In this document: in pieces, positions 640 through 35,085 of the stretch | Numbering within the stretch: the stretch's first letter is position 1 | How the letters are laid out: each line of letters opens with the position of its first letter | DNA from: Eledone cirrhosa | Taxonomy: Eukaryota | Reading direction: 5' to 3' | Length of the DNA: 64,000 bases | Assembly (NCBI GenBank): GCA_964016885.1 | Contig: OZ024742.1 | Span: forward strand, 13,020,001 to 13,084,000 | The notes under the pieces: generated by a model | The model's input: the letters and a program-made list of their open reading frames with translations, nothing else | What the model was told of the DNA's origin: nothing | Database searches by the model: none | Position numbers and translations under genes: made by a program

Positions 640-1552
640 TATACGCCCGTATATGTAAAAATACTTACACACAGACACACACACTTGCGTTGGTCCGGGA
701 GGGGAGGTATGTGTTGGCGGTGTTGATGAAGTATGGAGTTGTGTTTTGTGGTGGTGGTGGTGGAGTTGTAAGCGACAAAAATATACAGGATGGAATAGTG
801 CGATGGGTTACAGGTTAGAAGGTGACATAGGGAACGCGGGGAGAAGAGTTTATGGATGTATGGCGATGTGTGTTGTGGTCATGGTGGTGGTTTTGGTGCT
901 GGGGTGATATGTTCGACAAAATGATTACATGACCAGAAGTTACGGTGTGTCACAAACGCCACTACCATAAACAACAACACCACAACCACACCCCACACAC
1001 GACAACCCGTCTACCGAAAACCCACTAACCTCATACCACAGCCCATCCCAGAAAGCGACCATAACCACCATCTTATCATCACATCCACCCCCACATACAC
1101 TACAGGCCAAGGCCAACACGCCACCACCACACCACAGGCCATCTCATCCACCGACCGTCACCAACATCTCACCATCACACCCACCCTCATATACACCACA
1201 GGCCAGTACATCCACTTGATCCTTCCCACCAATCAAAACAACCCATTTTGTCAAACTCTTGAAACTCTGACTTTACCACAAGTATTTCATTTTCTTATAG
1301 CATTTTAAAAGGGTCCGTCGAGCCGCCGATTATTGAGTCGGGTAGGATCGATACAGATCGAACCTTGAGCTGATTAGTGGCGAAACGCGCGTCACCTATC
1401 AATAAATGCAATGAAGGAGTAATCAATCGTCCTTGTTATCCTTTCAATATATTACACTCTGTATAGCTCTACACCTCATCACAGAAGTGAACCTAAACAT
1501 CGAGTGCTCTCCCGGGTGAACCTGCAGTAACTCCAAGTTACACCTCCCTCCT

Positions 1553-1555
<3 letters not shown>
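640..1555 (+). mobile_element. PLE-like terminal repeat (family A, copy 1), ending in (TA)n
   Basis: ~950-1555 closely matches ~12300-12905; HHR-like fold followed by AATAAA; GT-rich partially inverted 5' part. Confidence 0.6.
1311..1397 (+). ncRNA. Candidate variant hammerhead (core CCGUCGA, long stem II, palindromic CGCGCG stem III)
   Basis: gggt-CCGTCGA-GCCGC...GTGGC-GAAA-CGCGCG-TC-acct; same core and stem I aggt/acct in the copy at 12666-12752. Confidence 0.55.
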
Positions 1556-3997: not shown

Positions 3998-4193
3998 TAA
4001 CGAAGGAAATGTGGTAAGGAACCAGGTGGACCATAACGCACCAAAGTACTCAATACTTGAGGTAGTAGAGTGTGTAATAGGAACCAGTAAGACCCCGACA
4101 GCTGAGCTCAAGCCGTCTCGACGGCTAATTCTGGTCCAGAATTAGCCGTCGAAACGGCTTGAGCTCAGCTGTCGGGGTCTTACTGGTTCCTAT

Positions 4194-9829: not shown

Positions 9830-10399
<570 letters not shown>

Positions 10400-11029: not shown

Positions 11030-11655
11030 ACACACACAGACACATACACAGAGACACACACACAGAGACACACACACAGAGACACACACACAGAGACACA
11101 CACACACACACAGACACACACACAGACAAGCACACAGACACACACACAGACACACACACAGACACACACACAGACACAAACACAGACACACACACAGAGA
11201 CACACACACAGAGACACACAGACACGCACAGACACTCCGACCCCCCCCCCCCACACACACACACACACACCTCTTCCTGAACATGCAACCCCGTTCTTCC
11301 CCCAACCCTTACTTTCACATACACACACACACACACACACACGTACACCTACACACACACACACCACCTTCAGCCCTCCCCGCTCGGACACCCCGTCTCC
11401 CTCTCCCCACTCCACCCGCCACCACCCCTACACACCCCACACCCTTCCATCACCTGTTTTACCCCCCTTTTAATTTCAGTTTATTTTGATCATGCTTTTA
11501 TATTTGAATTTATTTCATTCCTTGTATTTTGATCATGCTTTATTTTTATTTTTATCTTTATTTTTTTAATTTTTCATTCGCACCGTTTCCTTTCGCTATA
11601 TGTCTCTCCACCACTCCCCTACACACCCTTTGAACTCTGTTCCCACACACTTCTC

Positions 11656-11687
11656 ACCCGAGGAAGGGCTTATGCCCGAAACGTCGT
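11656..11687 (+). ncRNA. Minimal hammerhead-like motif with CCGAGGA core (minus copy 9176-9207)
   Basis: ac-CCGAGGA-aGGGCttatGCCC-GAAA-CG-TC-gt; stem I only 2 bp. Confidence 0.55.
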
Positions 11688-11777
11688 CCCCCACCAACAC
11701 CCCACTCTCCAGAGCGTGAAATTAATAAACATTCGTTGTACTGCCTCTCTGTTTTGTCCCTGTTCAAATGTTTCCAT

Positions 11778-11808
<31 letters not shown>

Positions 11809-11829
11809 ATATATATATGTATGTGTGTA

Positions 11830-12902
11830 TATATATGTATGTGTATATATGTGCGTGAGTATACGTGTGTGCGAGTGAGTATGTGTATATTTTGTATACG
11901 TGAGTGTGAGTCCAGGTGCCCATACCCATATGTATGTATGGGTATATGTATGTGGACGTATGTATGTAAAACACCTTCTACATTGCCTCTCACCTTCCCC
12001 CATATCCGTCGTTCGCCACCCCAACGATACTCCCCCACTCTCCATATTCGTGCCCGCACGCGCACATGCACATACATGTGTGTACATATACATATGGCCG
12101 TGTGTGAGCGTGTGTCGATATGTGTGGGCAGGGATGTGTGTATGTGTTGTGTGGTGGGTGTGTTTATACAACAATATGTGTGCACATATATACCTATATG
12201 TGTGTGCGTATAAGTATACACAAAGCATCTGCCAGGCGATGAGCGACTAGCTATGTATCTAGGTAATGACCTTGACGCCACCAACACATCCGCCACACCA
12301 CCACAAACGCCACTACCATAGATAGCGGCACCAATACCCCCCACACACACGCCAACCCGTCTACTGACAATCCACTAACCTCATACCACAGCCCATCCCA
12401 CTAAGCAACCATAACCACCACCAATCATGACATCAACACCCACACATACTTACACGCCAAGGCCAATCAACCACCACCAGACCACAGCCCATCTCATCCA
12501 CCCATCGTCGCCAACATCTCACCATCACACCCACCCCCATATACACTACAGGCCAGTACATCGCCTTGACCCTTCCCACCAATCAAAACAACTCATTTTC
12601 TCAAACTCTTGAATATCTGACTTTATCACATAGCATGTATTTCATTTTCTTATAGCATTTTGGGAAGGTCCGTCGAGCTGCGGATTATTGAGTCGGGTAG
12701 GATCGATATAGATCGAACCTTGAGCTGATTAGTGGCGAAACGCGCGTCACCTATCAATAAATGCAATGAAGGAATAATAAATCGTCCTTTTATCCTTTTA
12801 ATATATTACACTCTGTATAGCTCTACACATCATCACAGAAGTGAACCTAAACATCGAGTGCTCACCCGGGTGAACCTGCAGTAACTCCTAGTTACACCCC
12901 CT

Positions 12903-12905
<3 letters not shown>
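11830..12905 (+). mobile_element. PLE-like terminal repeat (family A, copy 2) with variant HHR at 12666-12752
   Basis: High similarity to 950-1555; aggt-CCGTCGA-GCTGC...GTGGC-GAAA-CGCGCG-TC-acct. Confidence 0.6.
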
Positions 12906-12941
<36 letters not shown>

Positions 12942-12942
<1 letters not shown>

Positions 12943-14600
12943 GTTATTCCGGGTTGAATCGGAGGTAACCACAGTAAGTAAGGTACTCAATACATTGCAG
13001 AATATAAAAGTTTTAATATAGATGAGATTCTACAGGACTAGAACTGTTTCATTCTTTAGAAATCATCAGGAATCTGGGTATCAAAAAATAAGTATGATAT
13101 TTAATGTTACCACCATTACCGATACTGAGCAAGTTGTTATCCTCCACGCTCGTAAGACCTTCCTATACCACGATGGATCTTACTGGATCAACAAGAAATC
13201 TCAGACCCCATTTGACGTTAGCATGGGAGCGAGTGACTCGGCTGAAATTAGCGACCTTGTGGGCCTGTACATCCTACATCACCTGAAGAACCTCTTTACC
13301 GGCCTAACGGGAGGTTTATATCGAGACGACGGCCTCTTCGCCCTGCATAAGGTTAGCCCCAGAACCACCGATGGCTTTCGGAAAAACTTAAGCTCATTCT
13401 TCTCTAATCTAGGATTTAGTATAACTATAGAATCTAATTTGACTAGGGCCAACTTCTTAGATGTCACTCTCGACCTAGATACTTCCCTCTATTACCCGTA
13501 CCACAAACCTAACGAGTCCCTTAAATATATTAATGTTAATTCAAACCACCCCCAAAACATCACTGATAACCTAGTAAAAGGCGTCTCTATGAGAATATCC
13601 GGCCTCTCCGCCAACAAAGATATTTTTAACGCATCTGCCTCCTACTACAATGACGCCCTCGCCCGTAGCGGATTTAAAGAAAAGATAACATACCTAGAAA
13701 CCACCGCAAGATTGCAGAGGAGGAATAGACATAGGCAGATTAGCTGGTACAACCATCCCTTCAATAGAGAGGTCTCTACTCCGATAGCTAGGATTTTCTT
13801 CACTTTGCTGAAATTACACTTCCCCATACAACATAGGTACCACACCATCTTTAATAAGAACACAATAAGACTCTCCTACTCCACCACACCTAACCTAGCT
13901 AGGAATATAGCCAACCACAATTCTAAAAAATTAAATAAACCAACCACCTCCGAACCCAATCCCCGGACTGGGGCTCTGTGTAATTGCCTAAATAAGGAGG
14001 CATGCCCACTTGAAAACAAATGCCTCACAAATGATATCGTATACAAATGCGATGTCATCTCAGGCACCGATGATTGCAAAAAAACTTACATCGGCATGAC
14101 CTCCAACAACTTTAAGACCCGTTGGTATGCCCATACCCACTCCTTCAGAAGTCCGGACAAATCAAACCAGACAACACTCGCCTCCTATGTTTGGGACCTC
14201 AAAAGGAACTCCACCCCTTCATGCTTAAATAGAAAATACTCCAGAAAGCGCGCTCTTACAACGGAGGACACAAGGGCTGCGACCTTTGTATTTCAGAGAG
14301 CTACGAAATTTTATTCGCCAAGGGCCCGCTACTGAACAAACTCTCTGAACACTGCCCGAACTGCATGCACAAGAACTTTGCAACTTTCAAACACTTTAAG
14401 CCAGTGTTAAAGCCCGATGGCTAAAAACGACTTCCTCCTATTGGCCCCTATACCTTCCCACATAACCCCCACCTTTCCTCAACCTGAAATACGGCAACTA
14501 TGGTTATGTGAGTACCTCTTACCTATCTACATTTTCTGCCTGTAGAGGTGTTTTTATGTGCCTGCGTATATGCGTATATTTATTGAGTACATATTTATTT
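12942..14600 (+). mobile_element. 5'-truncated Penelope-like element, Naiad type, with inverted pLTR at its 5' end (12942-~13100)
   Basis: RT and GIY-YIG motifs; inverted pLTR matches 23510-23596 and carries an HHR on minus (13025-13075). Confidence 0.9.
13100..14424 (+). pseudogene. Naiad-type PLE RT (C-terminal half) + GIY-YIG endonuclease; frameshift at ~14215 and TAG in place of a Trp
   Basis: FDVSMGASDSAEISDLVGLY, GLYRDDGL, NFLDVTLDL, CNC..CPLENKC, IVYKC..TYIGMT..FKTRW..H; shifted frame gives KILQKARSY..CDLC..LLNKLSE..C.H. Confidence 0.9.
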
Positions 14601-16383: not shown

Positions 16384-16570
16384 GTTATTCCGGGTTGAAT
16401 CGGAGGTAACCACAGTAAGTAAGGTACTCAATACATAGCAGAGTATAAAAGTTTTAATATAGATGAGATTCTACAGGTCTAGAACTGTTTCATTCATTAG
16501 AAATCATCAGGAATCAGTGATTCCTGATGATTTCTAATGAATGAAACAGTTCTAGTCCTGTAGAATCTCA

Positions 16571-24184: not shown

Positions 24185-24209
24185 AGACAGCACCTAAGAA
24201 AATATCAAC

Positions 24210-27200
24210 ATGGACGTGTCACAAAAGACAGAGGCCGAGATTTCAGAGCTGCGGGCTATGATCAGAGAGCGGGCTGGTCAAATTAAAGCCCTCTCGAATC
24301 AAGTAGAGAACTTGACCTTTCAAACACACCGGCGACGCGGCAACAATCGATCCAGGCCTTTTCACAGTCGAAGATCCAGTAGTCCCAGTCAAAATCGTGT
24401 GCCTGGCAACATCTGCTGGTATCACACAAATTTCGGCGCACAGGCATCTAAGTGCAAAGCCCCGTGCTCTTTCCGGAATGCCACCCAGAGCCTAGCGACG
24501 ACGTTCACCCCTGGTACTGAAAAGAAAAGTCGTTTATTTTTTATTAACGACCAGGCGACAGGCATCCGTTACCTCGTGGATACAGGAGCCCAGGTTAGTG
24601 TTATTCATGTTTCACTAATCTCGGGCAAAAGACATCCAACCCCGTCCTTTCTGCAGGCAATGAACCAATCGTCAATTCCGACTTTCGGGGAGAAGTCTCT
24701 GACCCTCAATTTAGGCCTGAGGCGGCGTTTTCAATGGGTGTTCGTCGTGGCAGACCTGCCGACCCCGATCCTAGGAGTCAATTTTCTCCACCACTTCAAC
24801 CTTCTGGTGGATATGAAGAACCGGAGGCTTATTGACACCACCACAAACCTCACTGTGAGAGGTATATTTACCACGCAATCCACAGTGAGCCCTGTAATTT
24901 GCCAGTCAGAGCCTTCACGGTACAACGGCATTCTCCAGAAACACCCAGACATCACTCGCCCGGTATTTAAGGATAGTCCCATTAAGCATAGTGTCACGCA
25001 CCACATCGAGACAAAGGGACCACCCACAGCTGCCCGACCAAGGAGACTGCCTCCAGACCGATTGAGAATCGCCAAGCAGGAGTTCCAACACATGCTGGAC
25101 CTCGGAATCATTCGCCCTTCCTCCAGCAACTGGTCTGCACCCCTACACCTTGTTCCAAAAAAAAACGAGAATGATTGGCGACCATGTGGGGATTATCGTG
25201 CACTTAACAATTCTACAGTGCCCGATAATTACCCTGTACCTCACCTGCACGATTTTTCTGCCTCTCTGCAAGGCGCACGTATCTTTTCCAAGGTAGATCT
25301 GGTGCGTGCATATAACCAGATACCTATGGAGCCTGCAGACATTCCGAAGACCGCAATCACAACACCGTTCGGTTTATTCGAATTCCTACGAATGCCGTTC
25401 GGTCTGCGCAACGCTGCACAAACTTTTCAGCGGTTCATTGACACCATGTTACGCGATCTACCCTTCGTATTCGCGTATATTGACGACGTACTGGTAGCAA
25501 GTGCTTCCGAGAATGAACACGAGAAGCACTTAGATCTCCTTTTCCGACGTTTGGCTGAGTACGGTATCATCATCAACCCCAGCAAGTGCCTTCTCGGCGT
25601 TCCTTCACTGTCCTTTCTCGGGCACATCATCGATAAAGACGGCATTCGTCCACTTCCCGAGAAAGTAGAAGCTATCCGCAGTTTTCCCGCACCTACATCA
25701 CTTCGGAAACTGCATGAATTCCTCGGTCTGGTGAATTTTTATAGGCGGTTCATCCCTCATTGTTCCGACGCAGCCAGACTCCTCACGGACCTTCTTCGTA
25801 ACCGGACTCGCAAAAACGAAGAGATCACTCTAAACGAGGAAGAATTAACATATTTTAACCGCCTGAAAGAAATGTTGGCAAACGCTTCCATGCTCGTTTT
25901 CCCCAGGTCTGGCGCTCCTCTTTCGCTGCTAGTGGACGCATCAGACACGGGGGTTGGAGGCGTTCTACAACAACATGTCGACGACGGGTGGCAACCCTTA
26001 TCCTTCTTTTCTAAGCGGCAGAAACGAAATACAGTACCTTTGGCCGCGAACTCTTGGCAACCTATCTTTCGGTTAAGCATTTTCGGCACATGCTCGAAGG
26101 ATCAGATTTCGTGATCTACACGGACCATAAACCACTAGTTTATGCGTTCCGTATCAAACCTGATCGACATTCACCGAGAGAACTCCGACACCTGGATTTT
26201 GTCTCCCAATATTCAACTGATATTCGGCATATCAAGGGATCAGACAACGTAGCAGCCGACGCCCTGTCCCGAATCCAGCTGAACGCAATACATGTGCATT
26301 CAGGCATCGACCTTCAACAAATCGCAGCTGACCAAGAGACTGACGAAGAGTTTATGAAACTCTGAGATTCGCCATCTCTCAAGTTTCAGCAAGTTCCCAT
26401 TCCTTCTTCTCCGGGACAAATTTGTTGCGACCTTTCTACCGGTCATGAACAACCGTACGTACCACAGATGCATCGTCGACAAGTTTTTTCTGCTTTACAC
26501 TGCTTGTCTCACCCGGGAATCCGGGCTACACAGAAACTCATCTCTGCTCGTTTTGTGTGAACTAACATTAACAAGGACGTGCGCGACTGGTCCAGGAGCT
26601 GCATTGCCTGCCAGAAAGCCAAAGTCCACAGACACATCAAAACTCCACTCGGCACATTCGCGCAACCTGATGCACGTTTTCATCATGTGCATATCGACAT
26701 CGTCGGACCTCTACCACCATCACAGAACTACACACACTTGCTCACCTGCATCGATCGATTTTCTCGTTGGCCTGAGGCTTTTCCCATAAATGATACCTCA
26801 GCAGAAACAGTCGCTAAAACTTTTGTTTTACACTGGGTATCACGTTATGGCGCCCCAGCGAAGATAACAACGGACAGAGGACGCCAGTTTGACTCCCACC
26901 TCTTCAGGGAACTGACTCGCCTGTTAGGATGTAAACACATCCGCACGACAGCTTATCACCCGCAAGCTAATGGTCTCGTGGAAAGAGTCCATCGCCAATT
27001 GAAAGCTGCAATAAAAGCATATCCAGACAAGACCCACTGGTTTGAATACCTACCACTCATCCTTCTGGGCATTTGATCCAACGTTAAGGAGGAATTCGGA
27101 CACACACCTGCAGAATTAGTGTACGGCACCACCCTGGTTCTACCTGGTCAGATGGTTGCTCCCATCTCTCCTCAGGATGTTCCAGACCCAGGATCATACG

Positions 27201-27270
27201 TACACCGTCTTCGACAATATATGTCTCACCTTGCTCCTGCAAGCACCCGTCAACAGAACACTGCCACACA
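24210..27270 (+). pseudogene. Gypsy gag-pol (short gag C-terminus, protease, RT, RNase H, integrase), disrupted and 3'-truncated
   Basis: CWYH..FG..A.KC..PC; LVDTGA; YIDD; VDAS; H-H-C-C and [17 protein letters not shown]; frameshift ~26015, stops at 26363, ~26558, 27074; no 3' LTR. Confidence 0.95.
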
Positions 27271-30200
27271 CGTACTTGTAATTTCCTAACTAGTTGTGTT
27301 CTTTCTGTTCCTGTGAAGCCTAGCTTCTCAAGATTTGTATTGTGGCAGTTACTAACATATCCAAGTGCCCCAATAATCACAGGCATAAATCTGAAGGTGT
27401 AATCAGGGTGGAGTACCTGCAGATTTCTCATCAGTTCTGCATAAATATTCTCCTTTTCGCTAATCTTTGATATTATATTGGCATCTGCTGGGCAGCTAAC
27501 TTCCACTACTGTGCATGCTTTCTTCTACCTGTCCCATATCATAATATCTGGTCCGTTATGCCTGCATTTTATTGGCGTTTTTACAGGAACATTCCACCAG
27601 TACTCTTTCATATTATGTACGTGGATGTCTTCCACATTGCTGTAGCTTTTAATGTGTTTATTATCGGGGCTATCTTTTTTCCGGACTGCATTGGACAGTG
27701 TTTTGGCCACTACATCATGCCTCATGGGTAGATAGTACCGCGATGACATTTTTCGACAGCTGCTTATGACATGGGTGATATCCTCGATGTTAGTTCTGCA
27801 GAGTCTGTACTTGTTATCACATCTAGGTGTTTTGCCTGCATCCCTATCTCTTTTGTGAATCAGGTATTTCGTGTTAATCTCTTGTTCTTGGATTGCAAAA
27901 GCGTATCCTTCAAAGTGGGAGCAAATATAGCGGTTGTTGGTCCAAGATAGACTACTTTCCTTATCTATATTACTCTCACTCTGGAGCTTCCTGGCAACGT
28001 ATCAATGCATGATTTTTTGCTGATAAGCATGCAGTTTTTCATCCATGGACTCACTGCGATACTGCTGAGCGACTTCTCTGGGTGTGAGTGTTTGGTTATC
28101 ACACAGGGAATATCTCTCGAGGAGTTCCTTCCCAACTCTCATGATCTTATCTGTTTCATCTTAGCTGTTTCAGCTATAATTTGCCCTATCTTAAAAAAAG
28201 GCGACAAAGACCCGTGAGCCTCACCTCAATCGTCTGTAAAGCCTTGGAATCTCTAATTAAGCGGGCAATTATGGCTCATCTTGCTACTTTCACTGCCATC
28301 TCTCCATCTCAACACGGTTTCATCCCGAAACGTTCCTGTCTTACAAACCTACTCGTGATGGAAGAATGGGTGAGGAGAATAATAGACGATGGAGATGCGG
28401 CCGATATTATCTTTCTCGGCTTCGCAAAAGCCTTTGACTCTGTCAACCACCGCCTGCTCCTGCATAAGCTCAGCAACTATGGTCTCCATGATTCGATTAT
28501 AAAGTGGATTGGATCATTCCTTGAGGGTCGTACTTGCAGAGTTCGGATCAATGGTAGTCTGTCATCGGGGGTGGGTGTAGGCAGCGGCGTTCCCCAGGGC
28601 TCTGTGTTGGGCCCAATTCTCTTCCTTCTATACATCAACGACATGCCGGACGTGATTGGTGGAAACATGGTGAAAAGATGTTGTGAACATGGTAGCCCGT
28701 AGGAGCGAGATCGACAATCTCAAGTCCAGCCTCCAGCGCGCCTGGAGTTGGTCCATTGACTGGGATTTATACCTCAATGACGATAAGTGTTGCCATATGG
28801 AAGTGGGTACACCTTATAACTCAGCTCTTACCTTCAACGGTGGCACTGCTCCTTTGAAGGAGGTTGAGGAGACTAAAGATCTTGGTCTGCTGGTCGACTC
28901 GTCCGTCAAACCAAAACATTGCATTCAAGCCGCAAACAAGGCAAGGAGCTCTCTTTTTCTTGACGCTCCTTTGCCAAACTTACTCCAGAAATGTTCAGGC
29001 CTCTCTATGTCGCCCTCGTGAGACCGCACCTAGAATATGGCATCCAAGCATTAAACCCATATCTCATCCGGCATATCCATCACTTTGAGAGAGTTCAACG
29101 ATTAGCGACTCGAATGGTACAGGGTCTTCATGAGCTGCCTTACGAAAGCCGGCTGCAGAAGCTGAACCTCTTCTCCTTGGAGCGTCGACGGCTAAGAGGC
29201 GATCTCATCTTGGCTTACAATCTCTTCAATGGCCATTACGATCTCCCTCAAGATCTCCTCTTCACTCCGGCACTTGAAAGGGGTCTACTTGGACATGACA
29301 AAAAGCTGTTTCACCGCTGCTTTCGCCTAAATAGACGGAAAGCTGCTTTCTCGATCCGCATCTCTGGACCCTGGAATCGGCTTCCAGAAGAAGTAGTCAA
29401 CGCGTCAACCACGCAACAATTGAAGGCGAAATTGGACCGGTGTTGGACCACTGTGTTTCCGATTGTGTAAATTTTGCCCCCCTTCCCTCCTTACATGGCA
29501 TCTTAAGCATCTATCTTTTAATTTCTGCCAAATATATTGAATTGAATTGAATCATGCAGATAGACTTGCTCGAGAGACAGGCTCCTACGCTTCGAGGTTC
29601 GTAGAAGTTGTCGGAGGGATATGATGGGACATTCAAATGCTGTCTGGACTGATGTTAGGCCTCTGCCTCCCTGCTTATGTTTCAAGTAAAGGCGGTCTAT
29701 GTCACTGTTGATGTGGAAGTTTTCGGTGTTGTTTACTATTTTTCGAGTTCCAACAGCAACTGCTCGGATTTCGTCTATCGTCGAATTGAGTATTCCAAAC
29801 GTTGGTGTTAGGACAGGCACAGCAAACACATTGTGAGCCACTGTTTTGTTTTGCGCAGAGAGTTCCGATGACCGAATCTTTCTTAATCGGGTGTAGTATT
29901 CCCTGGTTACGCGTTCCTTATTACAGATACCATTATAGGATATGTTCTCATCTATCCCCAGGTATCTGTAGCAGTCATCATCAGATTATTGGTGAAACAG
30001 TTAGACCATTGATGACAATGTTGCTAGATTGGGTTTTTGTTTTCCCCGCTTTAGAGTCATGTATGAGCATTTATCTTGGCCAAACTCTATTCCTATATCC
30101 TTTGAGAACGTTGTAACCAGGTCAAGATTTTCTTCATCCCATCCATGTTCTTGGCATAGTTTCAGATCGTCCACCAAGAAATTATGAGTTAGGTTCGTAT

Positions 30201-31960
30201 TTCTGTCCTCCTGTGAGCCAATGATGTATCCCTCACATTTCTTGAGCAGAAAGGACAAGGGGTTTAATGACAAGATGAACAATATCACAGAGAGACTGTC
30301 TCCCTGAAATATACTCCTGTGATATTTTATTTTATCAGTGAAAATAGAGTCCTCCCTCTCTGTCTTTAACCTTAGGATGGTAGCCCAAGAAGAAGACAGC
30401 TTCTCTATTGCTCTGACAATAATGTCTGGGACTTTAGCAAGTTGGAGGGCCTCTATCATCCAAGAGTGGGGAACAGAATCGAAAGCTTTCCTGTAGTCCA
30501 GCCAGACTGTAGCCATATTCCTCCTAAGTTCTCGCACGTCCGACATCGCAGTTTTGTTGATTAGGAGTTGTTCAATACATCTCCAAACCCCTTTCTTTCC
30601 AGCTGCTTGTTCATCTGTGATGATGTTATTATTTTCACAGTGATCTTGGAGGAATAGGTTCAGGCAGGCTGTATACATCTTATACATCAGGTTGTGGCAT
30701 GCAATGGGTCGGTAGTTTTTTGCCAAGTGGGTGTCTTTGTTCTTGGGGACCAGTAATGTTTGTGCTAATTTCAACCATTCTGGTATAAGTGTATCTCCCT
30801 TAAGAACTTGTTGGTAGAGGTCAGTAAGATACCTCCGATAGAATTTCAGTTTTTTGTACCAGTAGCCGACAATCAAGTCTCTTCCTGGTGTTTTCTTATC
30901 TTGGAGTTTTCCTATCACAGTCTCAAGGGTACTCTCTGTTAATATCTCTGCTATCACCAAGATAATGCTTCACTGTCGTTGCTAAGGCATATAAACAGGC
31001 GTTGATTTGCCAAAATGTTGTAAATATCCGTCGTAAATATTCATCCCCTATTTCGCCAATAACACGTAATATTTCATTATTTGTTTTTTTATTAAATATT
31101 GTCGTTTTAATACGTTCAGCAAGAGAGATATTTATACATCAATTCATTTCTCTCTGGAAGATTTCGTTGAGGGAAATTTTCAATTGTTTATACTTTTGAT
31201 TATTATCATTATCGATAGTATTTTCCACAACAGTTGAGGTAGACTCGGATGGTACACGTGGTGTCAAATTTCTTCGATTATTATTATTATCGATAGTGTT
31301 TTCCCAGCATTCGAGGGTAGACTTAGATGGTACAGGCGGTGTCAAGTTTCTTACAGGCATAGTTGTTTCAAGGCGCTGTTCAACCTAGCTGCTAGGAAGT
31401 CTAGTAGCATGGCGACCTGTAGCACGTGTTGTTGATCCCATGTGTTGTGGGGGACTTATAATTAATAATATTTATCTTATTTTTACGTTCAACAAACGTC
31501 GCTTGTTGGCGCTTGTTGGCGTAATTTAGCTCTAGGTGCATTTCGTCCCAGTGTAGCTTCATTTTATTCATATAGCCAATGGAGGGATTGTTTTTTGCCA
31601 TTTTATAACAATTAAATAAATCATCATTAAGTTCGCAACTCCAAGAGAAATGTGATTTATAATTTCGGTTTCTTTTGTAGCTACAACTGAATAAAGTTTG
31701 TTTACCTTTCGATACCTCCTTAATTTTGTTGATGTTGTGTTCAGCCATGCTGTTTGTAGCAAATCCTTGTAAAATGAATTATGTATTTAGTCGGATATCT
31801 CTACGAATTCGAATAAAAGGTTTCTTAGAAGATACAGTTAGAAGAGAACCAGTTATTCAACATAACTGTAGTTGTGGCATTACTGTCGGAGATAGTATTC
31901 ATCTTAAATTTAATAAATAGTCTCCCACGCCAAAATATGCGACTGATCGCGTTGACTGTG
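27271..31960 (-). mobile_element. R4/Dong-type non-LTR retrotransposon (RT + CCHC + restriction-like endonuclease), degenerate, interrupted by a LINE
   Basis: RT 30001-30960 (NYRPIAC, DYRKAFDSVPH, IFQGDSLS, LVDDLK); LYLK..QGGRGL; RHDVVA; PDIMIWDR, EVSCP, PVIIGALG; N-terminal WSCELN..CY..GY..W motif. Confidence 0.88.
28161..29550 (+). mobile_element. 5'-truncated CR1-like LINE (RT and 3' end) inserted into the R4 element
   Basis: RPVSLTS, QHGF..RSCLTNL, AKAFDSVNH, GVPQGSVLGP, YIND, RPHLEY, LERRRLRGDL, WNRLP; (ATTGA)n tail; flanking atc/atc rejoins R4 frame VYLHD-ETDKIMR. Confidence 0.92.
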
Positions 31961-34789: not shown

Positions 34790-35085
34790 TGGCCATCACT
34801 AAATTCTAGAGTCTGTCTCGAGGCATTGAGGTTTATTAGCTCGGCATTTATCCTGGTTTCTAAGGTGTTAAGTACAAGACTCCCCTTTGGACAGGACGCC
34901 AGTCCAACACAGGGTTAAACTCCCAGCTATTGTTGCTCGTACTAATTGACAGCTGATTATACTGGAGCAACGTGAAATTAAGTGTTTTACTCAAGAACAC
35001 AATACACAACCCAGTCCAAGAATTGAACCCATGGCGTTATGATCGTAAGTCCAACACCCTTACCACTAGGTCACACCACACCTCC
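34790..35085 (-). mobile_element. tRNA-derived SINE (CORE/Nin-domain-like body), source of the adjacent satellite
   Basis: actggagcaacgtgaaattaagtgttttactcaagaacacaa and ggacaggacgccagtc..cagggtt body (family resemblance from memory), continuous with a tRNA-like head matching the array unit. Confidence 0.8.

Follow-up and report, generated by a model that had tools for sequence, protein, structure and literature searches.

The window analysed here, a stretch of 64 kb, looks like animal DNA, with microsatellites, retroelement fragments and an 82-bp satellite. A repeat of about 600 bp occurs in it twice (blastn of 951–1591 against 12302–12941, 89% identity), and each copy carries a hammerhead-like motif. 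The features are the following:

951–1554, forward strand: repeat copy 1, likely the 3' end or pseudo-LTR (pLTR) of a Penelope-like element (extent by blastn, element label inferred from the anatomy)
1292–1305, forward strand: predicted distal extension of stem I, 5' arm, pairing with 1404–1418 in a constrained fold
1311–1314, forward strand: proximal stem I, 5' arm GGGT, pairing with ACCT at 1394–1397
1315–1321, forward strand: core box C3–A9, CCGTCGA (CCGUCGA in RNA)
1322–1381, forward strand: stem II, 60 nt, with a 5-bp base, an interrupted helix and a distal hairpin (from the fold of 1322–1382)
1382–1385, forward strand: GAAA box
1386–1391, forward strand: palindromic stem III strand CGCGCG
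1391–1393, forward strand: GTC (GUC) triplet, with the predicted cut between 1393 and 1394
1394–1397, forward strand: stem I, 3' arm ACCT
1401–1406, forward strand: AATAAA, within the segment 1394–1418
1555–1630: (TA)n after copy 1 (TRF)
12302–12905, forward strand: repeat copy 2, then (TA)n, with flanks unlike those of copy 1
12666–12752, forward strand: hammerhead motif of copy 2, with AGGT at 12666–12669, the box at 12670–12676 and U6 at 12673
Remaining parts of the copy 2 motif, forward strand: stem II arm GCTGC; GAAA at 12737–12740; GTC (GUC) at 12746–12748

The 3' part of the repeat runs in the order hammerhead motif, AATAAA, a tail of ~150 nt, and (TA)n. The two copies have a common 3' end in front of (TA)n and differ in their 5' and 3' flanks, as expected if they were separate 5'-truncated insertions. 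The hammerhead near the element end, the common 3' end, the variable 5' truncation and the insertion at (TA)n together make up the anatomy of a pLTR. For Penelope-like elements, the accessible parts of two papers describe an insertion bias toward (TA)n and element ends that match this setting (PMC8557442), and ends with hammerheads, with which the anatomy here agrees (PMC4209133); the host repeat is likely the end of such an element. The layout of a non-LTR retrozyme, described in the available part of its source as head-to-tail tandem units each with a hammerhead (10.64898/2026.07.22.740005), differs from the two single copies here, which lie 11.3 kb apart with no tandem array there.

An ORF of the element itself, with RT and GIY-YIG domains, was not found upstream of either copy within the window. 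The ORF at 13022–14335 (forward strand), a 437-aa fragment with YRDDG, a Cys cluster and a GIY-YIG-like motif, is presumably the RT and GIY-YIG-like part of a Penelope-like element, an identity that we take to be likely. It has 437 relatives at E 1e-30 or better; neither the ORF nor four relatives of ~700 aa (among the 150 listed) gave a usable match in Pfam, NCBIfam or PDB. The repeat in front of it is another one, which has a CTGATGA box of its own on the minus strand; the ORF was therefore rejected as that of the element studied here, and as evidence for the identity of this element. Copy 1 is preceded by a G/T-rich stretch (690–950), possibly the 5' part of the element in inverted orientation, and copy 2 may continue into 12228–12301; no other match to either segment occurs within the window. 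Four short motifs were sought in the accessible part of the supplement of PMC8557442: three gave 0 matches and the fourth gave 4, the two shown being unrelated coding sequence.

Both copies read as type I hammerheads (core boxes 1315–1321 and 12670–12676), with the junction in the order stem I, 5' box, stem II, GAAA, stem III, NUH, stem I, and with helices of 4 bp (stem I), 5 bp (stem II base) and 2 bp (stem III). Stem I, the stem II base, GAAA, the palindromic CGCGCG and the GUC site are each present in both copies, as the original prediction had read them. One of the four proximal pairs of stem I differs between the copies, on one side only. The stem II base (GCCGC at 1322–1326 and GTGGC at 1377–1381, with 50 nt between) is opened by G10.1–C11.1. 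The C3–G8 pair, G5, A9, G12–A13–A14, A15.1–U16.1 and H17 are all in place. The 5' box departs from the canonical CUGANGA, which requires U4 and A6: direct reading confirms CCGUCGA in both copies, and in copy 1 this amounts to U4C, A6U (position 1318) and C at N7, with C3, G5, G8 and A9 kept. The letters support a hammerhead-derived motif that was parsed correctly at the outset. Distal stem I, with about 13 pairs predicted in a constrained fold, gains no covariation support, since none of these pairs differs between the copies.

A relaxed descriptor for type I, requiring any letter but A at position 6, has two matches in bases 1–35000, and these are the two copies, although the descriptor was composed after the motif had been seen and both matches belong to one family. 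With the same descriptor, 100 local Markov resamples give a mean of 0.0 (maximum 0) in the strict form and 0.04 (maximum 1) in the loose form, so that two matches are more than chance. The stem II fold (1322–1382) has a predicted energy of −21.4 kcal/mol and z of −2.55 against shuffles (−1.86 for stem II of copy 2); the fold of the whole motif is unexceptional (z of −1.36 and −0.67). The hammerhead fold lies 8.1–8.2 kcal/mol above the predicted best fold of each copy, in a comparison made without a control, and the predicted best fold of each copy pairs the core box. No Rfam hammerhead appears among the 150 of 185 window matches listed, nor among all 27 matches in 11550–12900; this is a weak test, as canonical-box motifs of the same window were missed too. 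A pattern scan of metagenomes gave 32 loci, none of them with a blastn match to the element, and these are read as chance. A viral pattern scan for the variant box gave at least 120 loci (about 800 estimated); none of the 120 listed fits the full descriptor or matches the element.

The two copies agree at 83/87 positions of the motif, 311/366 of the upstream part, and 143/157 of the downstream part. The motif is better conserved than the upstream part (p 0.007) and not better than the downstream part (p 0.31). At the downstream rate, the 19 box letters would be identical by chance with a probability of 0.17, and the two copies alone therefore do not show selection. Each of the 39 predicted pairs can form in both copies; two paired positions change on one side with pairing kept, and a check for covariation, limited to the two copies, finds 0 of 39 pairs changed on both sides. 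The conservation in two diverged copies that had been claimed thus holds as far as the box is the same in both; as a sign of selection, this pair of copies is weak evidence.

Contigs of four public runs were aligned on 12600–12880 (X1, 2943 contigs; X2, 3158; X4, 1; X6, 3). X1 and X2 come from one sample, possibly of the window's own source species, and are not independent of each other; X4 and X6 carry other organism labels in small shares, have no contig across the 5' box, and were not used. At 12670–12676 no other letter reaches 2% among the 40 of 44 variants listed, in X1 and in X2, with a summed depth in the bin of these positions of 32,032 (X1) and 38,753 (X2), depth not being copy number. 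All three T>A places per run are listed elsewhere, so none of the other four variants can be U6 back to A; by the counts per run, these four comprise a T>C, which could fall at position 6, a C>T confined to X1, a G>A confined to X2 and a G>C. A at position 6 thus stays below 2% of depth, the limit of detection, in both runs that cover the box, and therefore A6U is fixed in a multi-copy subfamily, among the contigs aligning across the box, and is not a decay of two copies. Variants near the box, at 12679 (7–9%) and 12682 (about 80%), fit the structure, and the box itself has none. The segment GAAA–CGCGCG–GUC (12737–12751) also shows no variant among the 40 of 44 listed, and stem positions beside it vary at 22–62%.

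These data bear on the reading that U6 is limited to the two copies or to a small sub-lineage, with their own subfamily canonical. T at 1375/12730 is common to both copies, against C in 99.5% of the public-run depth, which sets the two copies apart from the bulk as a closer pair; moreover, clipping would remove A6 contigs with another stem I from the alignment, and these may lie outside the loose ends listed. However, the places private to copy 2 (12662, 12663, and 12666) show 94–99.6% other letters, yet in the same contigs 12673 has less than 2% A, and dozens of contigs lie beside the box (25–34 at 12662; 61–63 at 12682). We consider such a local decay improbable.

Clipped contig ends provide the comparison with relatives. 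Those before 12690 read CTGATGA (52 contigs in X1, 46 in X2; agreement 0.66–0.67), with an arm of 13 nt after it, as long as the one in the window, and those before 12701 read CGACGA (43 contigs, X1; agreement 0.68). Both the CTGATGA and the (C)CGACGA of the relatives fall in gap-free register with the CCGTCGA box of the window, although they are mixed consensus strings drawn from the loose ends listed, beside which 308 further ones exist. This register is the strongest support for the parse, and for the view that CCGTCGA descends from a true hammerhead box. The wider family appears canonical at position 6, and the mixed strings suggest the order CUGAUGA, CCGACGA, CCGUCGA for the box in the master lineage. 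A family consensus of CYGANGA, which the original prediction had set against itself, is borne out in part: relatives with the same scaffold carry CUGAUGA or (C)CGACGA, whereas the subfamily of the window keeps A6U. Stem II differs as well. G>A at 12732 and 12734 (22–25%) would pair with the U-rich stem II arm of the relatives; between the window type and the relatives, pair 5 apparently goes from C–G to U–A, and pair 3 likewise from U–G/C–G to U–A. This points to compensation in stem II between subfamilies, as seen across pooled contigs rather than on one molecule.

The same register bears on whether the true 5' box lies elsewhere, either as the word CTGATTAG at 1370–1377 or in a re-ordered hammerhead, with CCGTCGA incidental. 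The word does place a CUGA just before GAAA. Where G8 should stand, however, the word has T (99.5% of the depth has C). Its letters are engaged in stem II pairs, a partner strand for stem I is lacking, and the CTGATGA of the relatives stands exactly at the position of CCGTCGA; CTGATTAG was rejected as a real box, and a mis-parse, largely refuted by the register, is highly improbable.

Of the two departures for which the core had been called doubly non-canonical, A6U is anomalous and U4C is ordinary. U4C is known as a natural viroid variant with reduced activity in vitro that is sufficient in vivo, and which, in contrast to the box here, keeps A6 (cited in the accessible part of PMC3088659). 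It is also found in two other repeats of the window, minimal hammerhead-like repeats with two copies each: the box is CCGAAGA at 10152 (forward strand) and 10025 (reverse strand), and CCGAGGA at 11658 (forward strand) and 9205 (reverse strand), with canonical CTGAAGA and CTGATGA boxes beside these repeats in the window. U4C was accordingly rejected as a second anomaly.

Compared with known systems, the motif resembles the minimal type I hammerheads of Penelope-like elements, as described in the available part of PMC4209133, in the type I order, the short proximal stem I, G10.1–C11.1, the palindromic stem III suited to dimers, the position near the element end, and the AU-rich flanks. It differs from them in the box, with U4, G5 and A6 in all 56 hammerheads of their Fig. 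S3 (partly imposed by the descriptor); in stem II, which with its loop spans about 10–25 nt there and 60 nt here; and in having no extra base between A9 and G10.1. The motif thus appears to descend from type I hammerheads of the Penelope-like kind and, failing the defining box at U4 and A6, is best described as a variant rather than a standard member. The A6C hammerhead of Bcep176, slow in Mg2+, likewise has a natural pyrimidine at position 6 (PMC3088659, PMC7151607, both available in part); it is a single phage example with C6 and U4 and measured activity, whereas U6 and C4 are combined here in a multi-copy animal repeat known from its sequence. The pLTR hammerhead of PAc (Poseidon, Anolis) also lies in the terminal repeat of a Penelope-like element; it is protein-assisted, is not needed for insertion in vitro, and has conserved C3 and G8 and measured cleavage, with no position-6 change mentioned in the accessible part of PMC11167929, while the motif here is read from letters.

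No natural A6U hammerhead was found in the literature searched, to which most subscription papers did not belong, and the accessible parts of PMC11014351, PMC12192606 and PMC6155905 hold nothing on A6U. Within these searches, the suggestion of an undescribed natural core variant therefore stands for the sequence; a functional core variant is putative, and a complete scan of double mutants of another hammerhead found no rescue within CUGA (PMC9901934). The A6U motif is real and subfamily-wide, and it is apparently undescribed as a sequence variant, with one anomaly rather than two.

Published activities at position 6 are mostly low, as given in the available parts of the sources. The natural A6C hammerhead cleaves at less than 0.1 per min (PMC3088659), and A6C introduced into a fast hammerhead lowers its rate from 0.30 to 3.6e-6 per min at 0.3 mM Mg2+ (PMC7151607, Table 1). 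In a scan of a type III hammerhead, all single and double mutants of CUGA are low except the C3–G8 swap (PMC9901934, from its text). For the PAc element, mutants of the catalytic core were without effect on insertion in vitro (PMC11167929), and Naiads have spread without a canonical hammerhead (PMC8557442). On the published A6C rates, the CUGA mutant scan and the dispensable cleavage of PAc, a weakened or dead core is favoured over the other readings: judging from mutagenesis of other hammerheads, A6U likely weakens or abolishes self-cleavage, and, by analogy with one in vitro system of a Penelope-like element, it was likely carried along in an element that needs little or no cleavage to spread, so that the weakened or dead core would have spread with a successful master copy. 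We give about an even chance to this reading, in which the successful element is likely Penelope-like; that the ribozyme activity of the A6U motif is low is, taken separately, more likely than that it is high. A counterpoint is that rules derived in vitro may not apply: A6C in the fast hammerhead recovers to 0.18 in Mn2+ and 0.33 at 10 mM Mg2+ (PMC7151607), and cleavage by the PAc hammerhead depended on protein (PMC11167929). The better conservation of the motif than of the upstream part, though not than of the downstream part, and the variants beside the box that fit the structure likewise speak against a dead core. Another counterpoint is that the rest of the core (C3, G5, G8, A9, GAAA, and GUC) is intact in both copies, together with all 39 predicted pairs.

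The latter points agree with a working core variant, in which U6 would be tolerated on this scaffold and the RNA would cleave at GUC as a dimer, with rescue proposed to come from C4 as a partner, from contacts between the long stem II and the extended stem I, from the protein of the element, or from Mn2+. Only one critical letter departs, the A6U form reached many copies, the backbone provides a structural link between positions 4 and 6 (PMC3088659), and the natural A6C hammerhead reaches 0.31 per min in 1 mM Mn2+ (PMC7151607, Table 1). Against it, the double mutants of CUGA in the type III hammerhead show no positive epistasis apart from the C3–G8 swap (PMC9901934), the two copies offer no double-sided change in 39 pairs, and U4C, coexisting with A6 in the neighbouring families, needs no A6U partner. 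We regard such a variant as possible, and only tentatively so; with equal reserve, this could be the first hammerhead known from nature with A6U, one whose CCGUCGA core is active, has been kept by selection in a successful subfamily of animal retroelements and is made workable by its context. RNA editing was dismissed as a rescue of U6, as A-to-I editing cannot convert U into A. If active, the RNA would be cut after C1393, probably as a dimer formed through stem III: the 8-nt stem III strand is predicted to form an 8-bp self-duplex of −13.3 kcal/mol, against only two stem III pairs within one molecule.

The same duplex is compatible with A6U transcripts serving as substrates, paired with canonical sisters via the palindromic stem III and cut in trans by the sister core. 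The unvaried GAAA–CGCGCG–GUC in the aligned contigs (among the variants listed), the canonical relatives in the same sample, and the description of hammerheads of Penelope-like elements as dimers (PMC4209133, PMC6765202, both available in part) fit this scheme. However, the stem I 5' arm of the sisters gives only two proximal pairs with the 3' arm of the window (by eye; consensus agreement 0.67), and, apart from one letter, the enzyme half is complete in the copies of the window; we find trans cleavage unlikely.

With the weakened or dead core as the favoured reading, the A6U family bears on the open question of whether Penelope-like elements need their hammerhead, whose function is described as unclear and which may parasitize the element (PMC8557442, available in part). 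CUGAUGA, CCGACGA and CCGUCGA would form a natural series on one scaffold, informative whether A6U cleaves or not. Should A6U prove dead, the subfamily would have multiplied in vivo with no functional ribozyme; should it cleave, context would be able to rescue a position held to be near-invariant, and search descriptors would have to be broadened, as those fixing A6 would miss whole retroelement subfamilies. As a point variant of a known system, it is relevant to specialists in ribozymes and retroelements.

Hammerhead-like boxes recur elsewhere in the window. In its first 35 kb, at least six repeat families have a candidate hammerhead box followed by GAAA. The inverted repeat pair 1627–1908 and 2080–2362 (95%) holds a hammerhead-like motif with the box CTGAAGA at 2170 (forward strand) and 1820 (reverse strand). 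Further boxes followed by GAAA (CTGATGA, CTGAAGA, CCGATGA), often in inverted pairs, are at 16524, 22322 and 4457 on the forward strand and at 13069, 15183, 16510, 22081 and 4443 on the reverse strand. At 4082–4188, two 53-bp arms form a near-perfect inverted repeat around a loop of 1 nt; CCGTCGA occurs in it on either strand, and one arm includes a GAAAC word. Nested retroelement fragments occupy 24198–30969; we take 24198–27076 (forward strand) to be a Gypsy-like pol, and two further fragments on opposite strands to be non-LTR RT. The satellite array at 35037–63752 comprises about 350 copies of the 82-bp unit, with a strong strand skew and a recurring variant block of 55/137 bp.
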